Virus record (IMG/VR): IMGVR_UViG_3300047457_000394
DNA: 20,000 nucleotides
Source of the DNA: an uncultured virus (IMG/VR IMGVR_UViG_3300047457_000394)
Lineage: Duplodnaviria; Heunggongvirae; Uroviricota; Caudoviricetes
Reading direction: 5' to 3' (one strand)
Within the stretch, counting starts at the first letter, position 1, and the number at the start of each line of letters is the position of its first letter. The position numbers and the translations under genes were made by a program. A model generated the notes under the pieces. It was not told where the DNA came from and did not search any database. It was given only the letters and a program-made list of their open reading frames with translations. Below are positions 1 to 10,504 of the stretch, piece by piece.

Positions 1-175
1 GCGCTGACCGTACGCTGCGTAGTTGCTTGTTGACCAGTCCGAGATCAGCGCTTGTCTTGATGAACACCGAGTCACCGATGTTCATCGCCTCCCAATGAAT
101 CCAATACTTCACCCCGAACAGGTTCAGGCACCGTATCAGGTCCGGCAGGGGTTCGATCAGGTTGGGTGGCTTCAC
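1..175 (-). CDS. Hypothetical phage protein, partial (runs off the left edge), overlapping the primase 3' end; start uncertain
   Basis: Open frame from GTG at 175: VKPPNLIEPLPDLIRCLNLFGVKYWIHWEAMNIGDSVFIKTSADLGLVNKQLRSVRSA, no stop to base 1. Not in the ORF track. The primase tail it overlaps looks like unstructured filler. Confidence 0.45.
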   Translation of the reverse strand, partial: MKPPNLIEPLPDLIRCLNLFGVKYWIHWEAMNIGDSVFIKTSADLGLVNKQLRSVRSA

Positions 176-3035
176 CAGCGTCGTCTCGAAGCTGGCTTGT
201 AAAGTTGCTAGTTGTGACTCCAAGTTCTTCGGCAATGAAGCAGTATGACCGGGTGACTCCGGCTTCAAAACCAAGAATGGCTCCAGCTCCGATTCGCTTT
301 GAGGTGGCGAGTCCTCCATGTTTCATCATCCCTCGTTCATTCCACTCCTTGATAGCCTGACGAAAGTCAACCTGCCGCTCAGTTAAAAACTCTCTAAGCA
401 CATTACCGGGTACCCACAGCTCACCCGTGTCGGGTTCGAATCGCATGCGAAGCTCCATGCGTGGTGTCTGTAGCGCAGCCGGTGGGATGCCATTGATCTT
501 ATTGACGTTGATGACCAGTGCGTTAGTCAAATTCTGGTTGATGAATGTTGAGAGCACATCATCCGTCACAGCACCGAAGTCCGATGCGGGCAGCAGAATT
601 TCACGACGTATGGTGGCGACCTGTTCAACGGCGTAGCGGTACACCGGTGCGATCGGTATGCTGTGTAGGCTCAGTGTGCTAGCGATCATCCCACCTGCGA
701 TGATGCAGGACAGCACGTGTGAATAGAACCGATCAGACTGGTCTAGGTCAAGGTCTGCGTCCAGGCGCTTCTGAGTGTCGCTGATAAGCTTGCGAACACT
801 CTCCATGTTGTTCATGACGTACTGGATAAAGATCGGACCTGCGAGTCCGTAGTTGTGCTGCAGCTCACTAAATACCGCATCTGTTGTTGCCTTCGGTATG
901 TTCAGCGGGCGCAGTACACGCAGCTCAATCAAACGACGTAGCTCGCCATCGGCGGTGTTCTTGAGCCGGATGAGTTTGTCGTACAGCGATGAGTTGCTGG
1001 ACATGATGAGGAACGTAGACCACGAGGCTGTGTTGACTCGCAGGCGGTTGCTCTGAGACTCCATGCGGTTCCTGCCACGACCTTGCGGGATGTCATAAAC
1101 AAGCTCTGACAACGCCTCATCAGACATGTTGGTCACTTCATCCATCGTGGCGGCAATCGTGTTGAGCATGCCTAGCCACTGCATCTTGGCTAACGTCGTA
1201 TCGTTCTTACGCATGAGCAACCCGTTGGGATGCCCGAAGATGCTGTTGACGACCATCTGCACAGTGGTCTTGCCGGTGCCCGACTTGTTGCTCATCAAGT
1301 TGATAGCAGCACCGCGAATCTCTACACCACCTACCAACTTCAACAGAGGAGCACCGAACCCAGCGAACACCGCCAACGCATGCGCTTCCATGCCGCTTTG
1401 AGAATAGAAGTTAACGATGTTCTTCCAGCTTTCCAAAGTGCCACGCGAAGTAAGAAGCGAAGAGACTTCACGCACTGCAGTAGATGATGGTGCGAGTGTG
1501 GCACCCGATGCTGTGTACTCAAGCTCACCCACTACAAACCCATCAAGGTCTTTGGTCCAGCCCATCTGATTGCGCGTACGGTTTGCAGCCCCACGCTGCT
1601 GCAGTTTCTTAAACGACGCTGCAAAATACGCCATGATGTCATCTACCTTTTTATTGACCACCGCCACGCCCTGCTTGAGCAGCGCGTCACGTAGCTTCTC
1701 TTTCACTAACAGAACATAAACCGGCACAATGATGCGCCGCACACCATCGTGGGGCGAGTGGATATTGATACCCACCATCTCACCGTCCCCTGTGCCGGAG
1801 TCGTCGTAGTCATAGAACCGGTCTGTTAGATAGAGGTCATAAGGGTAGATTTCAGTCTCGTGTGGGTCGCCATCCTCATCTTTGGTACGTTTAAACACAC
1901 CGCCTGTCGTTGGGCGGAAATAGGGCGCAGGGTAGATTGGTATAGCAACGGTTACCGGTGTGTTGTTGGTCTCAGTATTCGTAGGCTCTGGCACAGCCTC
2001 AACAACATAAGTGTCATCTGTCACCGGCGCTTCTTCAATCTTGATGCCCAACTGTATAGGGCTTGTGATCTTATGAGCGCACCCCTCACATGCCGAGGGA
2101 TTATTCATGCGGTACCACTCGCACGTCATGGGGCCAAGAGTTTTCTCAGCCTTAGCGATAGTGTCCTCGGGCGTGTACTCTGGGTGTGGCTTACTGAGCG
2201 TATGCACACTCTCTTCGGCGTCAACACAACGCCACGCAATCGATAGCGCCGCCCGCCACAGCGGCTCCGGCAGTGCTGCTGCCTCTTTAACAGCGTGTGC
2301 AATCTGAGCGCACCCCGTGCCCTTGAGGCTTCGACGTACTAAGCGAGCAAACGATGTAGGGGGGAAGTCGGCTTGCGCATGCTGCCGCGTGAAGTCATCC
2401 ATGCCAAACTGTTTGGCTTCGCTAAGATCGATCTCAGGCTCAGGCAGTTGCGGCTCAATGTCCGACAGATCGAACGACCGCACGGTACCGAAGAGCTTCA
2501 CCGCAAGGGGTGGTGTCGATTTGAAGTTATGTGTGTCCGGCATCCGCAGGACCCGTGCCGCATCAGCAGGTACGGCGGTATCGATCTCAAGGCCGTTATC
2601 CAAACACAACTTCTTAAAGCGCTTCGCAAGCTTGCGCCACTCACCGGCAGGTATAGCATCGTTCAACGGCCAATAGGCATGCAGCCCGCGCCCCGAGGAT
2701 ACAACGACCGGCAGTGGTATGTCTGCGTTAATACAGAACTTTTTCAGCGCGTCGTACGCATCAGCCTGCACTGCGTAGGGCTTACCTTCGCCGCAGTCAA
2801 GGTCAAGGAAAAACGCACGGAGATACGCAGCGTTCTCTGCGGAGCGCGTTGTAGGCTCGTTGAATGACGCTAACGCAAAGTATGCGTTTATGTTTGATCG
2901 ATTGAGTTCGTCCCCACGTTCAATAACCTCCTCGATTGTGTTATGGAATGTTTGCTTGACCGCTTTGTCATTGATCCCTACAACGCAGTAAGGCCCAACG
3001 GGCGGCAGAATGGCTTCATAGAATTGTGTACTCAC
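72..3035 (-). CDS. Primase-helicase: N-terminal AEP/RepB-like primase, Cys-rich domain, DUF927-type domain with P-loop NTPase
   Basis: AEP motifs FFLDLDCG, VVSSGRGLHAYW, RVLRMPDTHN; Cys cluster (C..., TC...CEGC); Walker A SGTGKTT and Walker B TMDE. GTG at 3035 is preferred over the track start 3059, which lies inside the structured leader. Confidence 0.88.
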   Translation of the reverse strand: MSTQFYEAILPPVGPYCVVGINDKAVKQTFHNTIEEVIERGDELNRSNINAYFALASFNEPTTRSAENAAYLRAFFLDLDCGEGKPYAVQADAYDALKKFCINADIPLPVVVSSGRGLHAYWPLNDAIPAGEWRKLAKRFKKLCLDNGLEIDTAVPADAARVLRMPDTHNFKSTPPLAVKLFGTVRSFDLSDIEPQLPEPEIDLSEAKQFGMDDFTRQHAQADFPPTSFARLVRRSLKGTGCAQIAHAVKEAAALPEPLWRAALSIAWRCVDAEESVHTLSKPHPEYTPEDTIAKAEKTLGPMTCEWYRMNNPSACEGCAHKITSPIQLGIKIEEAPVTDDTYVVEAVPEPTNTETNNTPVTVAIPIYPAPYFRPTTGGVFKRTKDEDGDPHETEIYPYDLYLTDRFYDYDDSGTGDGEMVGINIHSPHDGVRRIIVPVYVLLVKEKLRDALLKQGVAVVNKKVDDIMAYFAASFKKLQQRGAANRTRNQMGWTKDLDGFVVGELEYTASGATLAPSSTAVREVSSLLTSRGTLESWKNIVNFYSQSGMEAHALAVFAGFGAPLLKLVGGVEIRGAAINLMSNKSGTGKTTVQMVVNSIFGHPNGLLMRKNDTTLAKMQWLGMLNTIAATMDEVTNMSDEALSELVYDIPQGRGRNRMESQSNRLRVNTASWSTFLIMSSNSSLYDKLIRLKNTADGELRRLIELRVLRPLNIPKATTDAVFSELQHNYGLAGPIFIQYVMNNMESVRKLISDTQKRLDADLDLDQSDRFYSHVLSCIIAGGMIASTLSLHSIPIAPVYRYAVEQVATIRREILLPASDFGAVTDDVLSTFINQNLTNALVINVNKINGIPPAALQTPRMELRMRFEPDTGELWVPGNVLREFLTERQVDFRQAIKEWNERGMMKHGGLATSKRIGAGAILGFEAGVTRSYCFIAEELGVTTSNFTSQLRDDAGEATQPDRTPAGPDTVPEPVRGEVLDSLGGDEHR

Positions 3036-3039
3036 AGTG

Positions 3040-3126
3040 CCCCACGGTGATTGGCACACGGGTAAAAAGGCGGGGCAGCAGCCCGTGGTCTGCTGTGTCA
3101 GGGAGGGATCAGCCCCCTCAAGCCCC
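3040..3126 (-). promoter_or_regulatory. Structured leader/attenuator-like element upstream of the primase gene
   Basis: Minus-strand helices GGGG/CCCC (3126-3123 with 3075-3072), GAGGGG/UCCCUC (3119-3103) and CAGCAG/CUGCUG (3095-3076), then U5 (3068-3064). The loop CCACGGG is complementary to 3062-3057 and 3047-3042. Confidence 0.5.
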
Positions 3127-3134
3127 TGGGGTCG

Positions 3135-3392
3135 CTATACTACGCCAACAGTTCTGTAGCGTTCAAGTAGCACCTTGATCTGCGTCTCCATCGAACTACG
3201 CGGTTTGAAGCGCCCAGTGAACCATGAGTACACCGAGTGCCGCGCTACACCAAGGTCTTTAGCTACTTTAGTCGCTGGGATGTTGTGCTCAATGCAGAAC
3301 AGCCCCAGCTGCACCCCTGGCAAGTTCGGGTCTGCGTTACGTATGGCAGTGACCATAACGTATGAGTATCCCCGTGCATCATTCTTCATCAT
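3135..3392 (-). CDS. Cro/XRE-like helix-turn-helix protein
   Basis: ATKVAKDLGVARHSVYSWFTGRFKP is an HTH pattern; GGAG SD upstream of the ATG ATG at 3392/3389. Confidence 0.75.
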   Translation of the reverse strand: MMKNDARGYSYVMVTAIRNADPNLPGVQLGLFCIEHNIPATKVAKDLGVARHSVYSWFTGRFKPRSSMETQIKVLLERYRTVGVV

Positions 3393-4266
3393 CAGAACTC
3401 CACTGAGCCAGCACATCCTTCACGTCCTTGGGGGCCGCAGCAGGCTCAGCCTTTTTGCTCTCACGCTTGGCTGGTGCAGGCGCAGGTGCTTCGACCACTG
3501 CAGCCGTAGCTTCGGGCGTAAAGCTTTCAGGTAGTGCCGGTACGTTTGCCGCTACGTTGGTTGTGCTGAACTTCGTCTCAATCGCACGTTGGGCATCCTC
3601 AGTCTTGCCTTGCTGCCGAGACATCTCCCACTCGGGCTTCGTCAATGGACGCACTGCACGGAACTTCAACACCGGCACAGACTCACTGGTATCGAAGCGA
3701 GCTTCCGTCACAACGCCGCCCATGGGGATGCCGTGGCCTGACAAGAACTTTGCGTACGCTTGGAAAGGCATCTTCTCGCCCTCGGGCTTGCCGAAGTATG
3801 ACTTCGACGGAAGCTTCAAGCGATACACGTTGCCTTGCATGTCACCCTCAAGCACCACAGCGGTGTTCAAAAAGAACCGGCATGCACGGGACTTGCCTTC
3901 ACCAGAGCCTTCGATGTTCTGAGGACACGTGGCACATGCCGAGGACTGCGGGTTTTTGATCGACGCATCAGGTGTCTTGCTATCTGCAGACCAGCAGTCA
4001 GGTGCCGTGGCTTGGCCTTTGACATAGCTACCCGCGTAGTACGCACGAGATACGCTAGGGGCAGCGTTAACAACTACAAAGTTCATAGCGCGATCTTCGT
4101 TCTTGGCGATCTCCTCGCCACCCACGATCATGCGCCACACACCACCATCGATCGAGATTGACTTGCCTTGCGGGGTGCCAGCTAGACGGCGCGTGAAGTC
4201 GTCCTCATCAGAACGCAGATAGTCAGGCAGGGCAGCACCAGATTTGAATAGAGTGATCTCAGACAT
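3379..4266 (-). CDS. Putative ssDNA-binding/recombination protein
   Basis: 295 aa from MSEITLF (AAGGA SD); CATCPQNIEGSG...RAC Cys motif; Ala/Pro-rich linker and acidic tail WSSDDEE, typical of phage SSBs; lies in the replication module. Confidence 0.55.
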   Translation of the reverse strand: MSEITLFKSGAALPDYLRSDEDDFTRRLAGTPQGKSISIDGGVWRMIVGGEEIAKNEDRAMNFVVVNAAPSVSRAYYAGSYVKGQATAPDCWSADSKTPDASIKNPQSSACATCPQNIEGSGEGKSRACRFFLNTAVVLEGDMQGNVYRLKLPSKSYFGKPEGEKMPFQAYAKFLSGHGIPMGGVVTEARFDTSESVPVLKFRAVRPLTKPEWEMSRQQGKTEDAQRAIETKFSTTNVAANVPALPESFTPEATAAVVEAPAPAPAKRESKKAEPAAAPKDVKDVLAQWSSDDEE

Positions 4267-4276
4267 TTCAGTTTCC

Positions 4277-4666
4277 TTACTTGGTTGCACGACGAATAAT
4301 GATGGAATACTTCGAATCAGCATTTAGACCTTGCGGTAGTTCTCCTGGGTTTTCAGTTAAGAATTGCTTCATGTGTGATTGATGGATTCGTTGCTCAAGC
4401 AGTTGGATCGCGTCGTGTTTTTTGATGAAGCCGTACATCGAGTCCCAGTCGTTGGTCCAGTACCGGGTCTTGACTGAACGGGAAAATGTGCCGTACACAG
4501 TCTTGCCACCATCTTGCCCGGTGGCTTTGCATATCTCTAAAAGAGCTTGTTCGATGGTCTCCATCTGCTCGTCGATCTCCCCCGCCTTCGCTTCGTACTC
4601 CCGCTTCAGTGCGTCCTTCGCGTCCCGCATCTTGATGTAGACGCTTACCAGTTTCGTTGCATCCAT
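4277..4666 (-). CDS. Conserved phage replication-module protein (N-terminal coiled coil), function unknown
   Basis: 129-aa ORF with AAAGGAGA SD; first gene after the promoter at 4696-4723. Confidence 0.75.
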   Translation of the reverse strand: MDATKLVSVYIKMRDAKDALKREYEAKAGEIDEQMETIEQALLEICKATGQDGGKTVYGTFSRSVKTRYWTNDWDSMYGFIKKHDAIQLLEQRIHQSHMKQFLTENPGELPQGLNADSKYSIIIRRATK

Positions 4667-4695
4667 TATGTTCTCCTTTGTGAAGTGAGATAGTC

Positions 4696-4723
4696 ATTTT
4701 ACACTGTTGATCAACCATGTCAA
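4696..4723 (-). promoter_or_regulatory. Sigma70-type promoter with a palindrome in the spacer
   Basis: TTGACA (4723-4718), 16-nt spacer, TAAAAT (4701-4696); spacer contains the perfect palindrome GTTGATCAAC (4706-4715); the -35 box overlaps the helicase stop codon. Confidence 0.7.
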
Positions 4724-6270
4724 GCAATTTCCTCTTCATAAAGCTGTACCAGCGCTTGGTGCATATCCAATTTCCCATCCAATAACGCGTAAATCCTTTT
4801 CTCCACAGGGCTCCCCTGCAGGCGTACAACCGTCACTGGGTTGCGCTGCCCCGCTCGGTGTGCTCGCGCATTACCTTGCATATACAGCTCCGCCGACGGC
4901 ACTGGCCCCCACCACACCACGGTGTCTGCCTTGGTCAACGTCACACCATGCGCCGCAGCTTGAGGGATCAGTAGGATCACCTTGGGGTCCGTCTCAGTCT
5001 GGAACTGTTTGATGAACGTCGCCCGCAGACTTCCTGGTGTGCCGCCGTGGATCGCTGCGTTAGTGATGCCGTCTTTCGATAGCAGCTCCGTTAGTCGCTC
5101 TAGCACGTGCCGGAAGGGGACGAACACAATCACTTTGTGCGTGGTGCCACGCACCACATCCAGCAGCTCGTTGTAACGGTTTGTGATATCGAACTCGATG
5201 ACTTCGCGCTCTGTAGAGTACGCGCTGCCTTGGGATACCTGCAGAAGTTTATTGAGTAGCCCTGCTGCGTTGACTGCGGTGATCTGTTCGCCCGCTGCGG
5301 TAGCCATCATGTTCTTGCGGATGACTTCGTAATACTGCAGTTGTTGTTTGGTCAGCGGCACATCGCGTGTGGTGTAGAGCATGTCCGGCAGGTCGAGGCA
5401 CTCCTCCTTGGTGAACCGGATGGCAGGCTGCAGCACACGATGGACAGTCTCCGCTGCAGAGGCTTTGGGTATCCATTTGAACTGCGTTACCTTGTACATC
5501 ACTTGATCACGAAACGCCCCGAAGAATCGTGGTACCGACGCCGGGTTGACGATCTTAGCTAGACCATACGCATCCACAGGCGACTGCGCAGCCGGGGTGC
5601 CAGTCATAAGCCATATGTATGTCTTGGGCAGCACCAGTGAGGCTAGTGCTTTCCATCGGTCTGTGGTTGCTGATTTAATCGCAGTCGCTTCGTCCACGAT
5701 GATGAGATCAAACTGTTGCTTAGCGAGCGCCTCGCGCACAACCTTAACGCCATCGAAGTTGATGATGGTGAAGTCATACCCGCCACGCACAATCTCTTCG
5801 CGTCTACGACGACTACCAACCGCAAGCGCCACCGTGCGGTGCATAACTGTCTTGAACAAATCTGACCGCCACGCCGTATCCATGATCGACACCGGGCACA
5901 CAATCAGCACCCGCTTGACAACCCCCACCGTCATGAGATAGTCCGCAGCCCACGCAGCGGCAGACGTTTTCCCGGTGCCTGCCTCGTTCAAACAGAAGCA
6001 ACGAGGGTGTGTGGCAAGGAACGCAGCAGTCGTACGTTGATGATCAAACGGGGTGTAGATACCGGGCCACTTGTAGCGCCCGAGGATAGGGTTAGGTACG
6101 TTCTTGATGCGCAGGTTGCGTAAGATTCGCGCTTCGTCAAACCCCCAGTGCACGAGGATTTCACCAACCTCGCCTTCCTTGCGCAGCAGCTTGCTCTTGG
6201 GTATGAGCTTTGTGATTTGCTCCGCCTTCTTGGTGCGGATGAGTAATGCCTTGTTGTCGATGATCTGCAC
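4720..6270 (-). CDS. SNF2-like SF2 helicase
   Basis: Motif I NEAGTGKT, motif II IIVDEAT, motif III MTGTP, motif VI QGNARAHRAGQ; GTG start with GGAG SD. Confidence 0.9.
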   Translation of the reverse strand: MQIIDNKALLIRTKKAEQITKLIPKSKLLRKEGEVGEILVHWGFDEARILRNLRIKNVPNPILGRYKWPGIYTPFDHQRTTAAFLATHPRCFCLNEAGTGKTSAAAWAADYLMTVGVVKRVLIVCPVSIMDTAWRSDLFKTVMHRTVALAVGSRRRREEIVRGGYDFTIINFDGVKVVREALAKQQFDLIIVDEATAIKSATTDRWKALASLVLPKTYIWLMTGTPAAQSPVDAYGLAKIVNPASVPRFFGAFRDQVMYKVTQFKWIPKASAAETVHRVLQPAIRFTKEECLDLPDMLYTTRDVPLTKQQLQYYEVIRKNMMATAAGEQITAVNAAGLLNKLLQVSQGSAYSTEREVIEFDITNRYNELLDVVRGTTHKVIVFVPFRHVLERLTELLSKDGITNAAIHGGTPGSLRATFIKQFQTETDPKVILLIPQAAAHGVTLTKADTVVWWGPVPSAELYMQGNARAHRAGQRNPVTVVRLQGSPVEKRIYALLDGKLDMHQALVQLYEEEIA

Positions 6271-6291
6271 AGACTCTCCAAATGTTTAATA

Positions 6292-6315
6292 GCCGAGGTG
6301 CGGTCTGCACTCGGC
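6292..6315. other. Hairpin between the terminator and the helicase RBS
   Basis: GCCGA-G-GTGC-GGTCT-GCAC-TCGGC inverted repeat with a 1-nt bulge. Confidence 0.5.
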
Positions 6316-6332
6316 GTTTGTTATGTGTCTCC

Positions 6333-6366
6333 AAAAAAGCGAGGTGACTGGGGGGAGTCACCTCGC
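6333..6366 (-). terminator. Intrinsic terminator
   Basis: Perfect 11-bp stem GCGAGGTGACT/AGTCACCTCGC with a C6 loop, followed by T6 on the minus strand. Confidence 0.85.
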
Positions 6367-6405
6367 AAACCAACTTCACAAGGAGAGTCCGGGGAGACGC
6401 CGGAC
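6333..6405 (-). ncRNA. Candidate ~73-nt small RNA with anti-SD motifs
   Basis: Bounded by a promoter (predicted +1 near 6405) and the terminator; 5' hairpin GUCCGG-CGUCUCC-CCGGAC, linker UCUCCUUGUGAAGUUGGUUU, then the terminator hairpin; no ORF. Confidence 0.6.
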
Positions 6406-6411
6406 CTCACA

Positions 6412-6440
6412 AGCCTACGTGGTCACACGTAGACTGTCAA
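6412..6440 (-). promoter_or_regulatory. Sigma70-type promoter with an overlapping palindrome
   Basis: TTGACA (6440-6435), 17-nt spacer, TAGGCT (6417-6412); inverted repeat CTACGTG-N4-CACGTAG (6415-6432) covers the spacer and part of the -10 box. Confidence 0.7.
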
Positions 6441-6692
6441 CTACTTCATGCCCGCTTTACGGGTTCTCGGGAAGCTACGGTTCGCACTCTTAGATACCGC
6501 GCGCAAGTTCCCCTTCGTAGTCCCACCGCCCTTGGCCATCGGCGTCACATGGTCAACGTCTTTACCATCGCCCTTACTGACTCGGCCTTCTTTCTCCAGC
6601 ATGCGCCGAGCTTTGTTACGTGCAGCGCGGTTAGCGATCTGCTCAGGCTTGCCTTGGTACGAGTCATACTCGTTGCGGTAGTTACGTGCCAT
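6441..6692 (-). CDS. Small HNH endonuclease-like protein
   Basis: DVDHVTPMAKGGG...NLRAVSKSANRS HNH pattern; AGGTG SD. Confidence 0.8.
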   Translation of the reverse strand: MARNYRNEYDSYQGKPEQIANRAARNKARRMLEKEGRVSKGDGKDVDHVTPMAKGGGTTKGNLRAVSKSANRSFPRTRKAGMK

Positions 6693-6695
6693 ACA

Positions 6696-7349
6696 TCACC
6701 TATGCTCACAAACGTCCTGTGAGACAGGACAAAATTTACACAGCCCACTGGGCGTGGCATTCCAAACATCGACCGCTACAGTATCCTCAATCGCTGCCGC
6801 ATGTCCTGCCCATCGAGATAAAATGTCCGGCATGTGCTCACGATAATACCGAGCTTGGATCACATCCCCCGGCACAAGGAAGAACAGCATCGCCTTTACC
6901 TTCAGCACACTGGGATGGTGCGCCATCGTCATAGCCGCCATGAGTTCTAACTGCGATGTATCTGCATAGCGACTCGATTTGCCTGTCTTCCAATCTGCTA
7001 ACCACGCGATCTCATTGTTGACCACCAGCAGGTCAGGGATACCTCGGAACCACACGTCCTTATCGAAGAACCCGCAAGGTGTGAAGTCCTTGCGAAGCCC
7101 CAACTTTTCTTCACAGAACCGTTGCCCAGGCATATCACGAATGCCTTCAAGCACCTCAGTGTGCCGTTGCAGATGTTCCGGTAGCTCCGTGCCGTCCTTG
7201 AGAAACTTCTCAATCGCTTCGTGCACAAGATTGCCGTATGTCGTAGCTTCGGTGGGTTGAGACTTAAACCGTTTGAGGATTCGAACCTGCTGGTACCGCC
7301 GTGCACAACCTTGGAAGTCTTTGATCGATGAGTGTGAGTGTATGAGCAT
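6696..7349 (-). CDS. PD-(D/E)XK exonuclease (Cas4/RecB-like, phage type)
   Basis: SHSSIKDFQGC N-terminus, GNLVHEAIE, RGIPDLL...ADWKTGK catalytic motif, C-terminal CKFCP...C. Start moved to ATG 7349, past the pol stop. Confidence 0.85.
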   Translation of the reverse strand: MLIHSHSSIKDFQGCARRYQQVRILKRFKSQPTEATTYGNLVHEAIEKFLKDGTELPEHLQRHTEVLEGIRDMPGQRFCEEKLGLRKDFTPCGFFDKDVWFRGIPDLLVVNNEIAWLADWKTGKSSRYADTSQLELMAAMTMAHHPSVLKVKAMLFFLVPGDVIQARYYREHMPDILSRWAGHAAAIEDTVAVDVWNATPSGLCKFCPVSQDVCEHR

Positions 7350-7363
7350 GATTGTGTTTACAT

Positions 7364-8314
7364 TTAGCAATCCCCGTATGATGCACCCCACCCTACCTCA
7401 CATGCAAGGGGGAGCGTTTTAGCCCACGCCGGTCGCCACGACATACATTCCTCAACATATTTCACGGCTTCTTCAACCTGCGCCTCGGGTGCGACACAGG
7501 CAACCGCATCATGGACAGTCAACACCACCTTGTACCGCTTGGCGATGCGCAGCATCTGCTCAGCCACGATGCACCGCGCGATCCCCTGGCAAAAATTCTC
7601 CACACTTTTGCCTCCGTATATGTCGATCACCTGCCCACGTGAGTCGTACACCCACCGCAAGGTGCCGTCATCCCGGCGCTCCTGCCGAAGCCCTGGGTAC
7701 TGAATGTGTGTACCGTTCGGAAGCGTAAGCCCCACGCCCGGCATAGCCTTCACGATATTCTGCCGGTCCACAACCATCGGCATATGCGCCGCCAGCATCG
7801 AGAGCGCAACGTCTGCAGTTTTCCATAGCTCAGGTATGCAGTAGTACGTCCGTCGATAGGTATCTACTATGCGCTTGGCTTCCGCATCGTCCACCACAAC
7901 GCCCGCACCCGTCTTCAGGAAGAGCTGTAGCTTCTTGTGCCCGACTCCATAACCACAACCTAACACAGTTGACTTTCCAATGAACCGTTGTTCTTTTGTT
8001 ATCTGGTCAGGCGCAACCCCGTAGATATGCGAAGCCATGATGCGATACACGTCTTGCTTTTGTTCAAACGCATCAACGAGGTCTTGCTGCCCCGCTAACC
8101 ACGCCAGCGTCCGCGCTTCGATCTGTGAGGAGTCTGAATCAATCACCACGTAACCGGGCGGCGCTTTGATAGCTTTCTTGATCTTGCCTGCGTTAGCTGT
8201 GCGTGATGGAAGGTTTTGAAGGTTAACCGAATCAGAGTTGTGTACCAATCTACCGTTAGCTACAAACCTATGCCTCGGCCCGCAGTTTTTGATGTCGTAT
8301 ACCGCAACCAACAT
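7364..8314 (-). CDS. DNA polymerase family A, C-terminal half, fused to a split-intein C-fragment
   Basis: SD AAAGGAGA and ATG 8314; 26-aa IntC then SDSVNLQNLP; motif A DSDSSQIEAR, motif B RFIGKSTVLGCGYG, motif C TVHDA. Confidence 0.92.
   Translation of the reverse strand: MLVAVYDIKNCGPRHRFVANGRLVHNSDSVNLQNLPSRTANAGKIKKAIKAPPGYVVIDSDSSQIEARTLAWLAGQQDLVDAFEQKQDVYRIMASHIYGVAPDQITKEQRFIGKSTVLGCGYGVGHKKLQLFLKTGAGVVVDDAEAKRIVDTYRRTYYCIPELWKTADVALSMLAAHMPMVVDRQNIVKAMPGVGLTLPNGTHIQYPGLRQERRDDGTLRWVYDSRGQVIDIYGGKSVENFCQGIARCIVAEQMLRIAKRYKVVLTVHDAVACVAPEAQVEEAVKYVEECMSWRPAWAKTLPLACEVGWGASYGDC
8237..8314 (-). mobile_element. Split intein C-fragment (IntC, 26 aa)
   Basis: MLVAVYDIKNCGPRHRFVANGRLVHN|S: block F VYDI, block G ending in HN, +1 Ser at 8236-8234. 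Confidence 0.9.
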
Positions 8315-9068
8315 GTTTTCTCCTTTGTAAAATTTCGTCGTCTGTAAAGCCTTTATGTATCCACTGACGAACGGTTTCATAAGTGATGTCACTTCGCTGC
8401 GCTAGGATAGCTCGTACCCGCTCCCCCATAGTGGTTCGTTTGTATTGGCGTTTGTTTCTTGCTTGTTCCGAACGCGTGGCCCATCTCAGATTCCCAGGTT
8501 CGTAGTGCCGGTTGTTATCGATCCGATCTAACGAGTGTGCCGGCGTAGGTCTAGGGCCCAGGTTGTAGAGTATCCATTCGACTGCGCTTCTAATACTCGG
8601 GAATCTAAACTCAATGCCTCTACCGCCATAATTTTCATAGACGACGTTTTTGGGGTTTGTACAGCGACCTTTAGCCCCCACAGCGGTAGCCCTAGTGCGC
8701 TGTATATCTTCAACAGAAAACCGTTGTCGTAGCGGGTCATTCAGGAGGGTCTCGGCCAAAACCTCTAATGCTACTGCAGAGGCAACGGTAGCTTGGCGCC
8801 TACGTTCTTCAGGGTCCATTCGTGCCATTTTTGCTCGGCTAGAGCAGGACCTGCAAAACTTAGAGTTACCGCTTAGGAGGTCACTAACCCTTAGCGCTCG
8901 CTCAACCCCGCAAGCACATCTGCACAAAACCCTATCTTTTGTAGTTACGAATAAGTCTCCTAGCGGTGTCCACGTCGTCTTGGGTAGGGCTTCGAGGAGT
9001 TTGGATTTTGTGGCCTCCCTGCATCGCATCTCGTAAGCTAATCTCGCCGGCGTCTGTGAATACGACAT
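8268..9068 (-). CDS. Free-standing HNH homing endonuclease between the pol halves
   Basis: CRCACG...LLSGNSKFCRSC Zn motif; RCTNPKN..YENYGGRGI; SLDRIDNNRHYEPGNLRWATRSEQARNKR; HTH-like C-terminus. Exact start uncertain. Confidence 0.88.
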   Translation of the reverse strand: MSYSQTPARLAYEMRCREATKSKLLEALPKTTWTPLGDLFVTTKDRVLCRCACGVERALRVSDLLSGNSKFCRSCSSRAKMARMDPEERRRQATVASAVALEVLAETLLNDPLRQRFSVEDIQRTRATAVGAKGRCTNPKNVVYENYGGRGIEFRFPSIRSAVEWILYNLGPRPTPAHSLDRIDNNRHYEPGNLRWATRSEQARNKRQYKRTTMGERVRAILAQRSDITYETVRQWIHKGFTDDEILQRRKHVGCGIRHQKLRAEA

Positions 9069-9255
9069 GATCGGGTGTCCCTGTTACGTTGTCCCATGTG
9101 ATGACTTCTTGGTAGCCGCTGAACTGAACACCTTCGTGCTCTACAAACTTTTCCCCATCCCACACAAGGTCGTCTGCGAGTACGTCAACGATACGTTTTG
9201 TCATCACCCCATGCTGTGGATCATACACAATCACCTCAGTATCGGCAACTAAGCA
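8932..9255 (-). mobile_element. Split intein N-fragment (IntN, 107 aa)
   Basis: Begins at Cys (9255-9253), CLVADTEVIV (block A), directly after the extein ...HSGRWSG; block B VTGTPDHVVFT (TxxH); ends at the stop at 8932. Confidence 0.9.
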
Positions 9256-10212
9256 GCCAGACCAACGACCCGAGTGTGCCCCGTAGTATCTAAGCGGCAC
9301 AGGAAACTTGCCACGATAGGACATATCTATGAACCGCTGAGTGCGTGTCTCCTCGATCGTGCTCTTCACACCCAACCGTGCGGCAACGATAGCCTGCACT
9401 TCAACGTCTTCGTGCTCAAGCAAAGCTTTGAACGCTTCATCAGTCTTCGCAAACGCGAGTGTCTGCTTACCCGTGGTCGGACTTGTCTTCATCGGTGGCT
9501 CAACGCCACGCTCTTTGAGCATCTCAGCCAACTGCGGATTACTCATCAGACGAGATTTATCGTCGGCACTCAGCTTGCTGAGTAACGCTTCCTTCTTAGC
9601 CAGCACGTCCGCCAAGTGGTCCTGCAACAACTCACGATCCAGCTCAAGCACGGGGTCTATGAACATCCGCAGAGTGAGATCAATCAGTTGAAGCTCTTTG
9701 ATGGGGAACCCACGCCGTAGGTACTGCGTAAACAACTCATACGTAAGCTCCACATCATTGACGCAGTAAGCACCATACCGTGCCAGTGACTTGGCATCGA
9801 AGTCTTTGTAGTTCTTACCGATTGCTGCAACAACTTCGTCACCCTTAGCACCGACTCCCATACGCTGGGCTTGAGTCTTGAGGCTATGGCTCTTCTCATG
9901 CGGAAACAAAGCGCGAGACATACCCATGATATCCAGCCACGCCTTGGGCTCCACGCCGTAGTGCCACTTGAGGATCGCACCATCGAACATGGTGTTCTGG
10001 GCTACCACCATTGCGTTGCCCCAGTCGATAGCCGCCAGTGCTGCCTTTACTTCAGGCTTGGGGTACCACTTGGTAGGGCCGTGATCGATCTTGATGGCGA
10101 CACCAATCGTCTCGAACAGGGGGCTGCGGATGTACTCCTCGGTTGATATCTTTGAGAGCGAATACTCTCGGTCGTAATAAGTCTCCAGATCAAGCACAAC
10201 GACATCAGACAT
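8932..10212 (-). CDS. DNA polymerase family A, N-terminal half (3'-5' exonuclease and thumb), fused to IntN
   Basis: ExoI VLDLETYY, ExoII AQNTMFDGAIL, ExoIII YCVNDV, YYGAHSGRWSG; 319-aa extein followed by the intein. Confidence 0.92.
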   Translation of the reverse strand: MSDVVVLDLETYYDREYSLSKISTEEYIRSPLFETIGVAIKIDHGPTKWYPKPEVKAALAAIDWGNAMVVAQNTMFDGAILKWHYGVEPKAWLDIMGMSRALFPHEKSHSLKTQAQRMGVGAKGDEVVAAIGKNYKDFDAKSLARYGAYCVNDVELTYELFTQYLRRGFPIKELQLIDLTLRMFIDPVLELDRELLQDHLADVLAKKEALLSKLSADDKSRLMSNPQLAEMLKERGVEPPMKTSPTTGKQTLAFAKTDEAFKALLEHEDVEVQAIVAARLGVKSTIEETRTQRFIDMSYRGKFPVPLRYYGAHSGRWSGCLVADTEVIVYDPQHGVMTKRIVDVLADDLVWDGEKFVEHEGVQFSGYQEVITWDNVTGTPDHVVFTDAGEISLRDAMQGGHKIQTPRSPTQDDVDTARRLIRNYKR

Positions 10213-10504
10213 CCGTTACTCCTATGACGCGAACAGCCTCGATGTTGGTCTCATCAACGACAAGCGCCACACCACCGGCTTCGCGTATTTTCATAATCTC
10301 AGCAGCTTGTAGTGCCGTTGGCACATTGCCTTTGGCTTTGCACTCGATAGCGAAGAACGCGCCGTTGACGCAGCCTACGATGTCAGGAATGCCTTGCCTG
10401 CCATAGCCGTTAGCGGGGGGCATGAAGTAGTAGACCCCCATCTCATCAAGAATTTTGCGAACGGCTTTCTTAACTTTTACTTCAGGAGTTGCTGCCATAG
10501 CCAC
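10205..10504 (-). CDS. VRR-NUC domain nuclease (Holliday-junction-resolvase-like)
   Basis: TPEVKVK...GIPDIVGC...FFAIECKA...PTALQ...GGVALVV. Confidence 0.85.
   Translation of the reverse strand: MAMAATPEVKVKKAVRKILDEMGVYYFMPPANGYGRQGIPDIVGCVNGAFFAIECKAKGNVPTALQAAEIMKIREAGGVALVVDETNIEAVRVIGVTDV

Follow-up and report, generated by a model that had tools for sequence, protein, structure and literature searches.

The closest described counterparts of the locus reported here are the fractured genes of Dassa (PMC2677866), in which an essential phage gene of DNA metabolism lies in two pieces with split-intein halves and an endonuclease gene stands on the same strand between them. Our locus lies in a 20,000-nucleotide (nt) stretch of DNA from an uncultured Caudoviricetes virus (IMG/VR record IMGVR_UViG_3300047457_000394; the window), where the family A DNA polymerase gene of a freshwater phage is divided into two parts by a split intein that has an HNH-like endonuclease gene between its halves; it is probably best explained as a mobile cassette of split intein plus endonuclease. 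The fractured genes, as described there, resemble the present family in the 3′ overlap of the endonuclease gene with the C-terminal intein half, IntC (6–69 bp there, 4–74 nt here), and in the occurrence of derivatives without the endonuclease. They differ in that their nuclease genes follow a non-coding hairpin leader of 27–51 nt, whereas the present gene has its start within block B of the intein and so shares sequence with the N-terminal half, IntN; in that their nucleases are GIY-YIG or Vsr-like, HNH being only predicted; and in that the host genes listed exclude family A polymerase.

A second group comprises the nested out-of-frame endonuclease inteins (Gosselin et al. 2025, Phillips et al.), which likewise carry an endonuclease in another frame of the same DNA, under purifying selection and with its own start. 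The layout of Gosselin et al., an other-frame nuclease within an intein frame that has no stop between Cys1 and the terminal Asn, is exactly that of the sister clade described below. The inteins in these accounts are unbroken, whereas here a stop at 8932 closes the intein frame; their nucleases are given as endonuclease VII-like, Vsr-like or LAGLIDADG, and the second open reading frames (ORFs) of Gosselin et al. typically lie outside the splicing domain, whereas here the nuclease ORF overlaps block B. The ShiLan-type insertions in phage methylases (Arsenault et al. 2025, PMC11855218) also carry an out-of-frame HNH gene, their invaded alleles have Thr or Ser where empty alleles differ, and one protein was compared with PacI; they contain no intein and leave the host gene unsplit, and the import of the +1 residue by inteins is termed speculation in that text. 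Finally, in Aeh1 nrdA/mobE (PMC2677866) an HNH gene lies between the halves of an essential phage gene and overlaps the downstream half, with the difference that no intein is described and the halves assemble unspliced. The general arrangement and both end states are already in print, and the present locus links two described layouts. In the literature covered, which left out preprint supplements that may list related polymerase inteins, no report was found that describes a family A polymerase fractured in this way with a block-B start for its HNH-type gene, or that places the nested and the split forms in sister clades.

Three minus-strand ORFs in three frames make up the locus: PolN-IntN (10212–8932, 426 amino acids), the HNH-like ORF (9068–8268, 266 amino acids), which is in the +1 frame relative to IntN, and IntC-PolC (8314–7364, 316 amino acids), in the +2 frame. 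The nuclease gene overlaps IntN by 137 nt (9068–8932) and IntC by 47 nt (8314–8268), and the IntC ribosome-binding site lies within the 3′ end of the nuclease gene (AAGGAG 8325–8320 before ATG 8314; feature 8312–8325); the use of three frames, both overlaps and the embedded IntC signal had been stated in the preliminary description of the window. Matches in Pfam and PHROGs identified the exteins as two parts of one family A polymerase, present as separate same-strand ORFs each fused to one intein half. PolN (9256–10212) comprises a 3′–5′ exonuclease domain and part of the polymerase domain, ends in GRWSG, and matched phrog_17 over residues 1–319 (expectation value (E) 5e-30) and Pfam DNA_pol_A_exo1 at E 5e-4, under the cut-off of that model; PolC (7364–8236) matched PF00476 at E 2e-37. 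The cassette itself spans 1,019 nt (9255–8237).

All marks of a class 1 intein are present, namely Cys1, block-B TxxH, a terminal His-Asn and a +1 Ser. IntN (8932–9255) has 107 amino acids, with Cys1 at 9255, the block-B His at residue 63 and the stop TAG at 8934–8932, and C1, T60 and H63 were invariant among 23 aligned sequences. IntC (8237–8314) has 26 amino acids, ends in His-Asn, matched TIGR01443 at E 0.055, under the cut-off, and is followed by the +1 Ser codon TCT (8234–8236). None of the library intein models reached its own cut-off on the intein halves in Pfam and NCBIfam scans. A predicted IntN-IntC complex scored 0.88 relative to 0.08 for the best of three controls, with a contact agreement between runs of at least 91% and a partner pLDDT value (predicted local distance difference test) of at least 82; 116 of 157 solved complexes attained the score mark applied, as did 2 of 215 mismatched pairs, and likeness to solved inteins may account for the pass. 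Rfam models, including those of group I and II introns, gave no match at E≤1 over 7300–10300, and a tRNA search found none; the intein motifs account for the insert.

Viral, metagenome, genome and phage collections yielded 232 complete intein elements, which merging at 95% identity reduced to 136; elements without IntC or Cys1 were dropped, and the set is a sample because the larger scans returned the best 80 matches only. At the polymerase site of the window there were 79 distinct elements, of which 67 were split with a +1 HNH gene (IntC in the +2 frame in 60 and in frame 0 in 7), 9 were split without an intact HNH gene and 3 were contiguous mini-inteins (L112, L200 and L299). Two neighbouring polymerase sites held 13 further split elements with a +1 HNH gene, and at other sites 28 contiguous inteins carried a related HNH gene nested out of frame, 20 of them in +1 and 8 in +2. 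A scan with the nuclease alignment, together with six annotated loci, gave 86 loci, of which 29 had the nuclease gene nested within an open frame, 7 were linked to an intein without nesting and 50 had no intein match. Dozens of elements share the same frames while their nucleases are only about 40–60% identical, and no contiguous intein with an in-frame HNH domain occurred among the 136 elements. IntN and HNH lay in one chain in 3 of 17 longer homologues, and IntC in none of the 17. Furthermore, contigs from four runs of four studies, one of them covering the whole stretch, showed no insertion or deletion; contig joints across the cassette derived from more distant polymerases and were not used. 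The homologous loci thus bore out the view that the nuclease gene is separate and out of frame and not a decayed in-frame domain, and we regard the layout, which is widespread, as real and selected with very little doubt.

To judge from the alleles compared, the nuclease probably drives homing of the cassette. Empty alleles made up 74 of the 78 scorable polymerase matches, and their +1 residue was Gln in 72 and Ser in none, while all 79 filled alleles at the site of the window had Ser (70) or Cys (9). Of two other polymerase subfamilies, one had Ser or Thr at +1 in 15 of 78 empty alleles, and the other had Ser there in 31 of 75. The uninterrupted GRWSG-SDSVN junction that had been put forward as the empty target is therefore the wrong substrate for a cleavage assay, since the empty site has Gln at +1. 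In the empty allele L219, whose PolC is 98% identical to that of the window, this codon is CAA (Gln), and the remaining differences are at +8, +9 and +27. A second filled allele, L003, showed no differences from the window across the 1,019 nt of the cassette, compared with 64 in 900 nt upstream and 43 in 870 nt downstream (5–7% diverged flanks), the flank differences beginning at –127 and +99; run X8, from another study, had 88 differences from the window, the number expected for the L003 haplotype. An identical cassette in diverged flanks suggests recent transfer, and the pattern fits homing with short co-conversion. Two observations weigh against this reading. Even the empty allele is nearly identical over about 110 nt upstream and about 100 nt downstream of the site, and a block with such flanks could be moved by ordinary recombination; and intein identity to the window correlates with extein identity (rho 0.77), which implies that much of the inheritance is vertical, or that homing is short-range.

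The preliminary description had the endonuclease invade, or escape from, the endonuclease slot of the intein and split it; invasion is one possible route only; the sister clade, however, has the same +1 HNH gene in unbroken inteins. In the nuclease tree the split-clade proteins formed one branch (support 97) adjoining the contiguous nested branch and apart from 43 of 45 free-standing genes, and in a concatenated tree of 43 elements the split (95) and contiguous nested (91) elements were sisters joined at 100. The nuclease tree left out three motif-less proteins, five duplicate loci and most of the split elements at site A, of which 28 named loci were retained; the concatenated tree left out three loci without a parsed intein. 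In the window, 23 of the 206 intein-frame codons over the nuclease are stops, and because stops are easily gained and hard to purge, a nested intein that later split is favoured and the reverse route is implausible. On these comparisons we lean towards a derivation of the split form from a contiguous intein with a +1 nested nuclease. The trees temper this view, as a split clade inside the contiguous clade, the expected pattern, was not recovered in the nuclease or concatenated tree, which gave sisters and show no direction; only a weak intein-only tree (quick version, 110 columns) nested split and contiguous elements.

The main competitor, which we consider less likely but by no means negligible, differs in origin only: a free-standing nuclease gene would have invaded a contiguous mini-intein at this site and split it at once, as in step II of Dassa, a view on which related nucleases may have made two separate invasions. 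The 5′ overlap would have grown afterwards, when intein codons upstream of the gene were taken over to provide its start. Contiguous mini-inteins do occur at this site, none of the 79 elements there is contiguous with a nested HNH gene, and the split-clade nucleases form a separate branch. A second nested group sits among the free-standing genes in the nuclease tree, which means that the nuclease family entered the intein family at least twice, and the spacing from block B to the Cys motif is 53 codons in 46 of 65 elements here versus 58–67 in the sister group. Set against this, both the intein and the nuclease group with contiguous nested elements and not with free-standing genes, the nuclease of the split and of the nested form alike uses the +1 frame, and the non-coding leader of 27–51 nt with a hairpin reported for the invaders of Dassa (PMC2677866, in the part consulted) is absent here.

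In the 5′ overlap the nuclease probably has its own start at ATG 9068, as codon usage across the family indicates. The putative initiation region (9064–9081) lies within block B, and the ATG (9068–9066) consists of the last two bases of the His63 codon CAT (9069–9067) and the following G. The block-B His codon was CAT in 44 of 45 elements with a following G, compared with 16 of 43 at the control His40 (Fisher P 2e-10, ignoring relatedness), and CAT in 2 of 21 where the next base is not G. Another ATG within nt 151–214 was found in 20 of the 23 elements that lack one at nt 188/191, and an ATG at nt 155–212 was present in 64 of the 67 split elements; for the 30 elements with an ATG at nt 158–164 the median ribosome-binding duplex was –7.0 kcal/mol, mostly from Glu-Val codons. 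Across the 5′ overlap of the 67 elements the +1 frame contained no stops in 2,983 codons, compared with 225 of 2,983 in the +2 frame and 242 of 3,350 in the +1 frame upstream. The window alone is weak evidence in this respect, as 16.6% of 500 synonymous-recoding shuffles left its 5′ overlap free of stops. Several points count against an independent start. The ribosome-binding site of ATG 9068 is weak (duplex –4.8 kcal/mol), its purine tract GGGA (9081–9078) coming from a Gly codon that is GGA or GGG in 38 of 45 elements; a hairpin over the start was not above chance (folding z +1.0); promoter-like and terminator-like sites were at chance level; and the relatedness of the elements makes the counts non-independent, so that P values overstate the evidence. 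Gene callers placed the start of the window nuclease (P0001) at Met81, giving 186 amino acids and losing both the overlap and the Cys-rich domain.

The same weak ribosome-binding site could speak for a +1 ribosomal frameshift within the overlap, which would produce a PolN-IntN′-HNH fusion in place of an independently started protein, and natural in-frame PolN-IntN-HNH fusions exist at a neighbouring site (P0128 and P0132). An ATG is superfluous to a frameshift, yet codon choice maintains one here and a substitute occurs nearby when it is lost (20 of 23), and we consider this mechanism improbable. The two fusions are 578-amino-acid proteins (clusters of 10 and 3 members, respectively) in which PolN-IntN is joined in frame to the nuclease core, the Cys-rich part and IntC being absent; possibly they are a step towards an in-frame intein nuclease.

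Substitution rates in 12 disjoint pairs were used to follow selection in the 5′ overlap. The synonymous rate (dS) of the intein frame dropped at His63 from 0.78 to 0.25. Over IntN residues 63–87, which lie over HNH residues 1–25 (8995–9069), the ratio of non-synonymous to synonymous rates (dN/dS) was 0.35 in the intein frame and 0.58 in the HNH frame, whereas over the IntN tail (residues 88–107; 8935–8994) it was 1.10 in the intein frame versus 0.20 in the HNH frame. As judged from these rates, the hand-over of selection between the intein frame and the HNH frame falls close to IntN residue 87, which leaves about 75 nt truly dual-coded and makes the IntN tail a by-product; in keeping with this, the predicted interface of IntN with IntC extends to residue 87. 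Family-wide, the IntN/HNH overlap ranged from 95 to 179 nt.

The encoded nuclease (8268–9068; phrog_374 at E 8e-30 and phrog_3377 at E 3e-28) comprises an overprinted N-terminal helix, a Cys-rich putative zinc ribbon (C49–C75), a YGGRGI motif, the core and a C-terminal helical domain. Its core reads D181-R182-x-D184-N185...Y189...N193...N205, with R182, D184, N185, Y189, N193 and N205 invariant and D181 conserved among 24 aligned sequences, and DR plus Y kept in 117 of 120 homologues. The designation as an HNH endonuclease thus holds as far as the PHROGs matches go and fails in the catalytic centre, where Arg182 replaces the canonical His; the motif, on the aligned sequences, is a PacI-like DR..Y and not canonical HNH. 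We take Y189, from its spacing and not from a superposition, to be the counterpart of the PacI Tyr. In the predicted nuclease model (mean pLDDT 91) the best nuclease fold match was PacI (Z 6.0, root-mean-square deviation (rmsd) 3.8, 85 aligned residues). This match is middling: the core alone matched PacI at Z 5.5 (rmsd 3.9 over 86 aligned residues), level with an unrelated axonemal chain (Z 5.8), and neither the full model nor the core gave a Foldseek match at E≤0.001. Pfam and NCBIfam gave no match for the nuclease, and a sequence search of solved structures returned nothing relevant and no PacI match. According to the portions consulted of Jablonska et al. 2017 (group 20, PMC5714182) and Pingoud et al. 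2014 (PMC4081073), PacI-type His-Me fingers likewise lack the catalytic His and have Asp and Asn metal ligands and a conserved loop Tyr, active PacI having Tyr in place of His; PacI is, however, a dimeric restriction enzyme, with a middling fold score and no sequence match to the window nuclease. Canonical HNH homing endonucleases of the I-HmuI type differ in having a His after the metal-binding Asp, which is absent here. By analogy, activity of the window nuclease would need a PacI-type Tyr.

At the other end of the gene, the nuclease overlapped IntC in all 67 split elements with a +1 HNH gene, over 4–74 nt with a mode of 20 nt (46 of 67), the 47 nt of the window being a local read-through. 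The IntC ribosome-binding duplex in the window, formed inside the HNH coding sequence, was –8.7 kcal/mol, and the median over the 67 elements was –6.2 kcal/mol. It had been supposed that the nuclease gene could not be deleted cleanly, a view not supported by five elements in which the nuclease core is gone and both ends are kept (L059, L158, L161, L049 and L196). The losses were 606 nt in L059, 540 nt in L158 and 468 nt in L161, each a multiple of three, and the remnant +1 frame of L158 has acquired a stop. In L049 (2501–3008) and L196 (2501–2873) the ATG embedded in the intein opens a +1 frame that continues without a break into IntC-PolC, where the ribosome-binding site is poor; here the nuclease start may now serve the polymerase half. 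L158 and L161 are more than 99% identical to full elements and so could be assembly variants, whereas L059 (92%) and L049 (71–77%) are more distant from the elements compared; the nuclease core is deleted several times.

These remnants bear on a further alternative, in which the product of the +1 gene has lost nuclease activity or never had it, and the gene persists because that product binds DNA or because its translation as a leader brings ribosomes to the IntC-PolC start. The Arg at the canonical His position would suit it, as would the three deletions in multiples of three and the +1 frames entering IntC in L049 and L196 with their poor local sites. A core dN/dS of 0.11 (12 disjoint pairs) with D, R, D, N, Y and N kept is beyond the needs of a leader; Tyr for His is known from active PacI (PMC5714182, PMC4081073), IntC of most elements has a strong ribosome-binding site of its own, and the L158 frame gained its stop. 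An inactive product therefore seems a poor candidate. An assembly error or a decayed intein with an in-frame HNH domain, which the odd layout and the IntN-HNH chains in 3 of 17 longer homologues might recall, has a vanishingly small chance of being correct and was ruled out by the shared frames of the diverged family, the four indel-free runs, the 0 of 136 contiguous elements with an in-frame HNH domain and the lack of IntC in the three fusions.

For the mobile cassette we propose the following mechanism. PolN-IntN and IntC-PolC would be translated separately, IntC-PolC from a ribosome-binding site of its own, and the two chains would be joined by protein trans-splicing through Cys1, the block-B His, the His-Asn and the +1 Ser, as the motifs and the predicted complex suggest. 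The nuclease would be a third chain from ATG 9068, a start that selection appears to have written into the block-B His codon; other lineages would use ATGs derived from Tyr, His or Asp a few codons earlier, with a ribosome-binding site supplied by Glu-Val codons. During mixed infection the nuclease would nick or cut empty pol alleles with a PacI-like Asp/Asn metal site in which Tyr replaces His, and repair would copy the cassette together with the +1 codon, converting Gln to the Ser required for splicing. A contiguous intein with a +1 nested nuclease would have become split; once IntC had its own start, stops would have accumulated in the intein frame across the nuclease, leaving only the 5′ and 3′ overlaps.

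A broader reading is offered tentatively and with somewhat less than even confidence. It holds that split inteins may arise by overprinting first, with a start and ribosome-binding site borrowed from splicing-motif codons, and by breakage second, which would free the nuclease from dual coding; that the borrowed start could later serve the polymerase half, as in L049 and L196; and that the cassette might bring the +1 nucleophile to sites mostly without Ser, Cys or Thr, homing by a Tyr-type His-Me finger. If true, one family would show mini, nested, split, core-deleted and IntN-HNH fused stages together. The parts worth pursuing are the block-B start of the nuclease, the import of Ser in place of Gln and this series of natural stages. 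The family makes testable the origin of split inteins without a lethal intermediate, the translation of out-of-frame homing genes and the import of the +1 nucleophile, with the window, L003 and the empty allele L219 as a natural allele set, and it provides about 67 natural split inteins with a 26-residue C-half.

Several further elements of the family were recorded. Sodalis phage SO-1 (L296; NC_013600.1 gp38/gp39) carries an element whose annotation reads 'type I self-splicing intron' but which is a contiguous intein with a +2-frame nested HNH gene, and in Pseudomonas phage MR14 (L298) the nested gene has no annotation. At a nearby polymerase site L206 (935–2137) is contiguous with a 373-codon +1 frame encoding a different ORF, GIY-YIG-like by eye, and a parallel GIY-YIG-like series comprises split elements (L118, L199, L114, L203 and L018) and L119, which has a long open intein frame. 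The split inteins L151 (2501–4105), L153 and L155 have middles of 1.2–1.3 kb with unrelated small ORFs and an AAWEAA repeat and no nuclease. Two inteins of the family per polymerase gene were seen in L060, L063, L067, L069, L097, L103, L189, L199, L200 and L204, often one split and one contiguous with nested HNH. In L299 (Moraxella phage Mcat20) the 417-nt mini-intein lies within a 310-amino-acid ORF resembling a polymerase fragment and is the likely source of phrog_26005.

Around the polymerase, the minus strand of the window (72–10504) carries a replication module with a Hjc-like resolvase (10504–10205) and a PD-(D/E)XK nuclease (7358–6696), both from Pfam, and, by eye only, a SNF2-like helicase (6270–4720) and a primase-helicase-like gene (3059–72). 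Downstream of the PD-(D/E)XK nuclease gene lies a second small free-standing HNH-like gene on the same strand (6441–6692, 83 amino acids), which has the usual Asp-His and matched Pfam HNH at E 0.007, under the cut-off.

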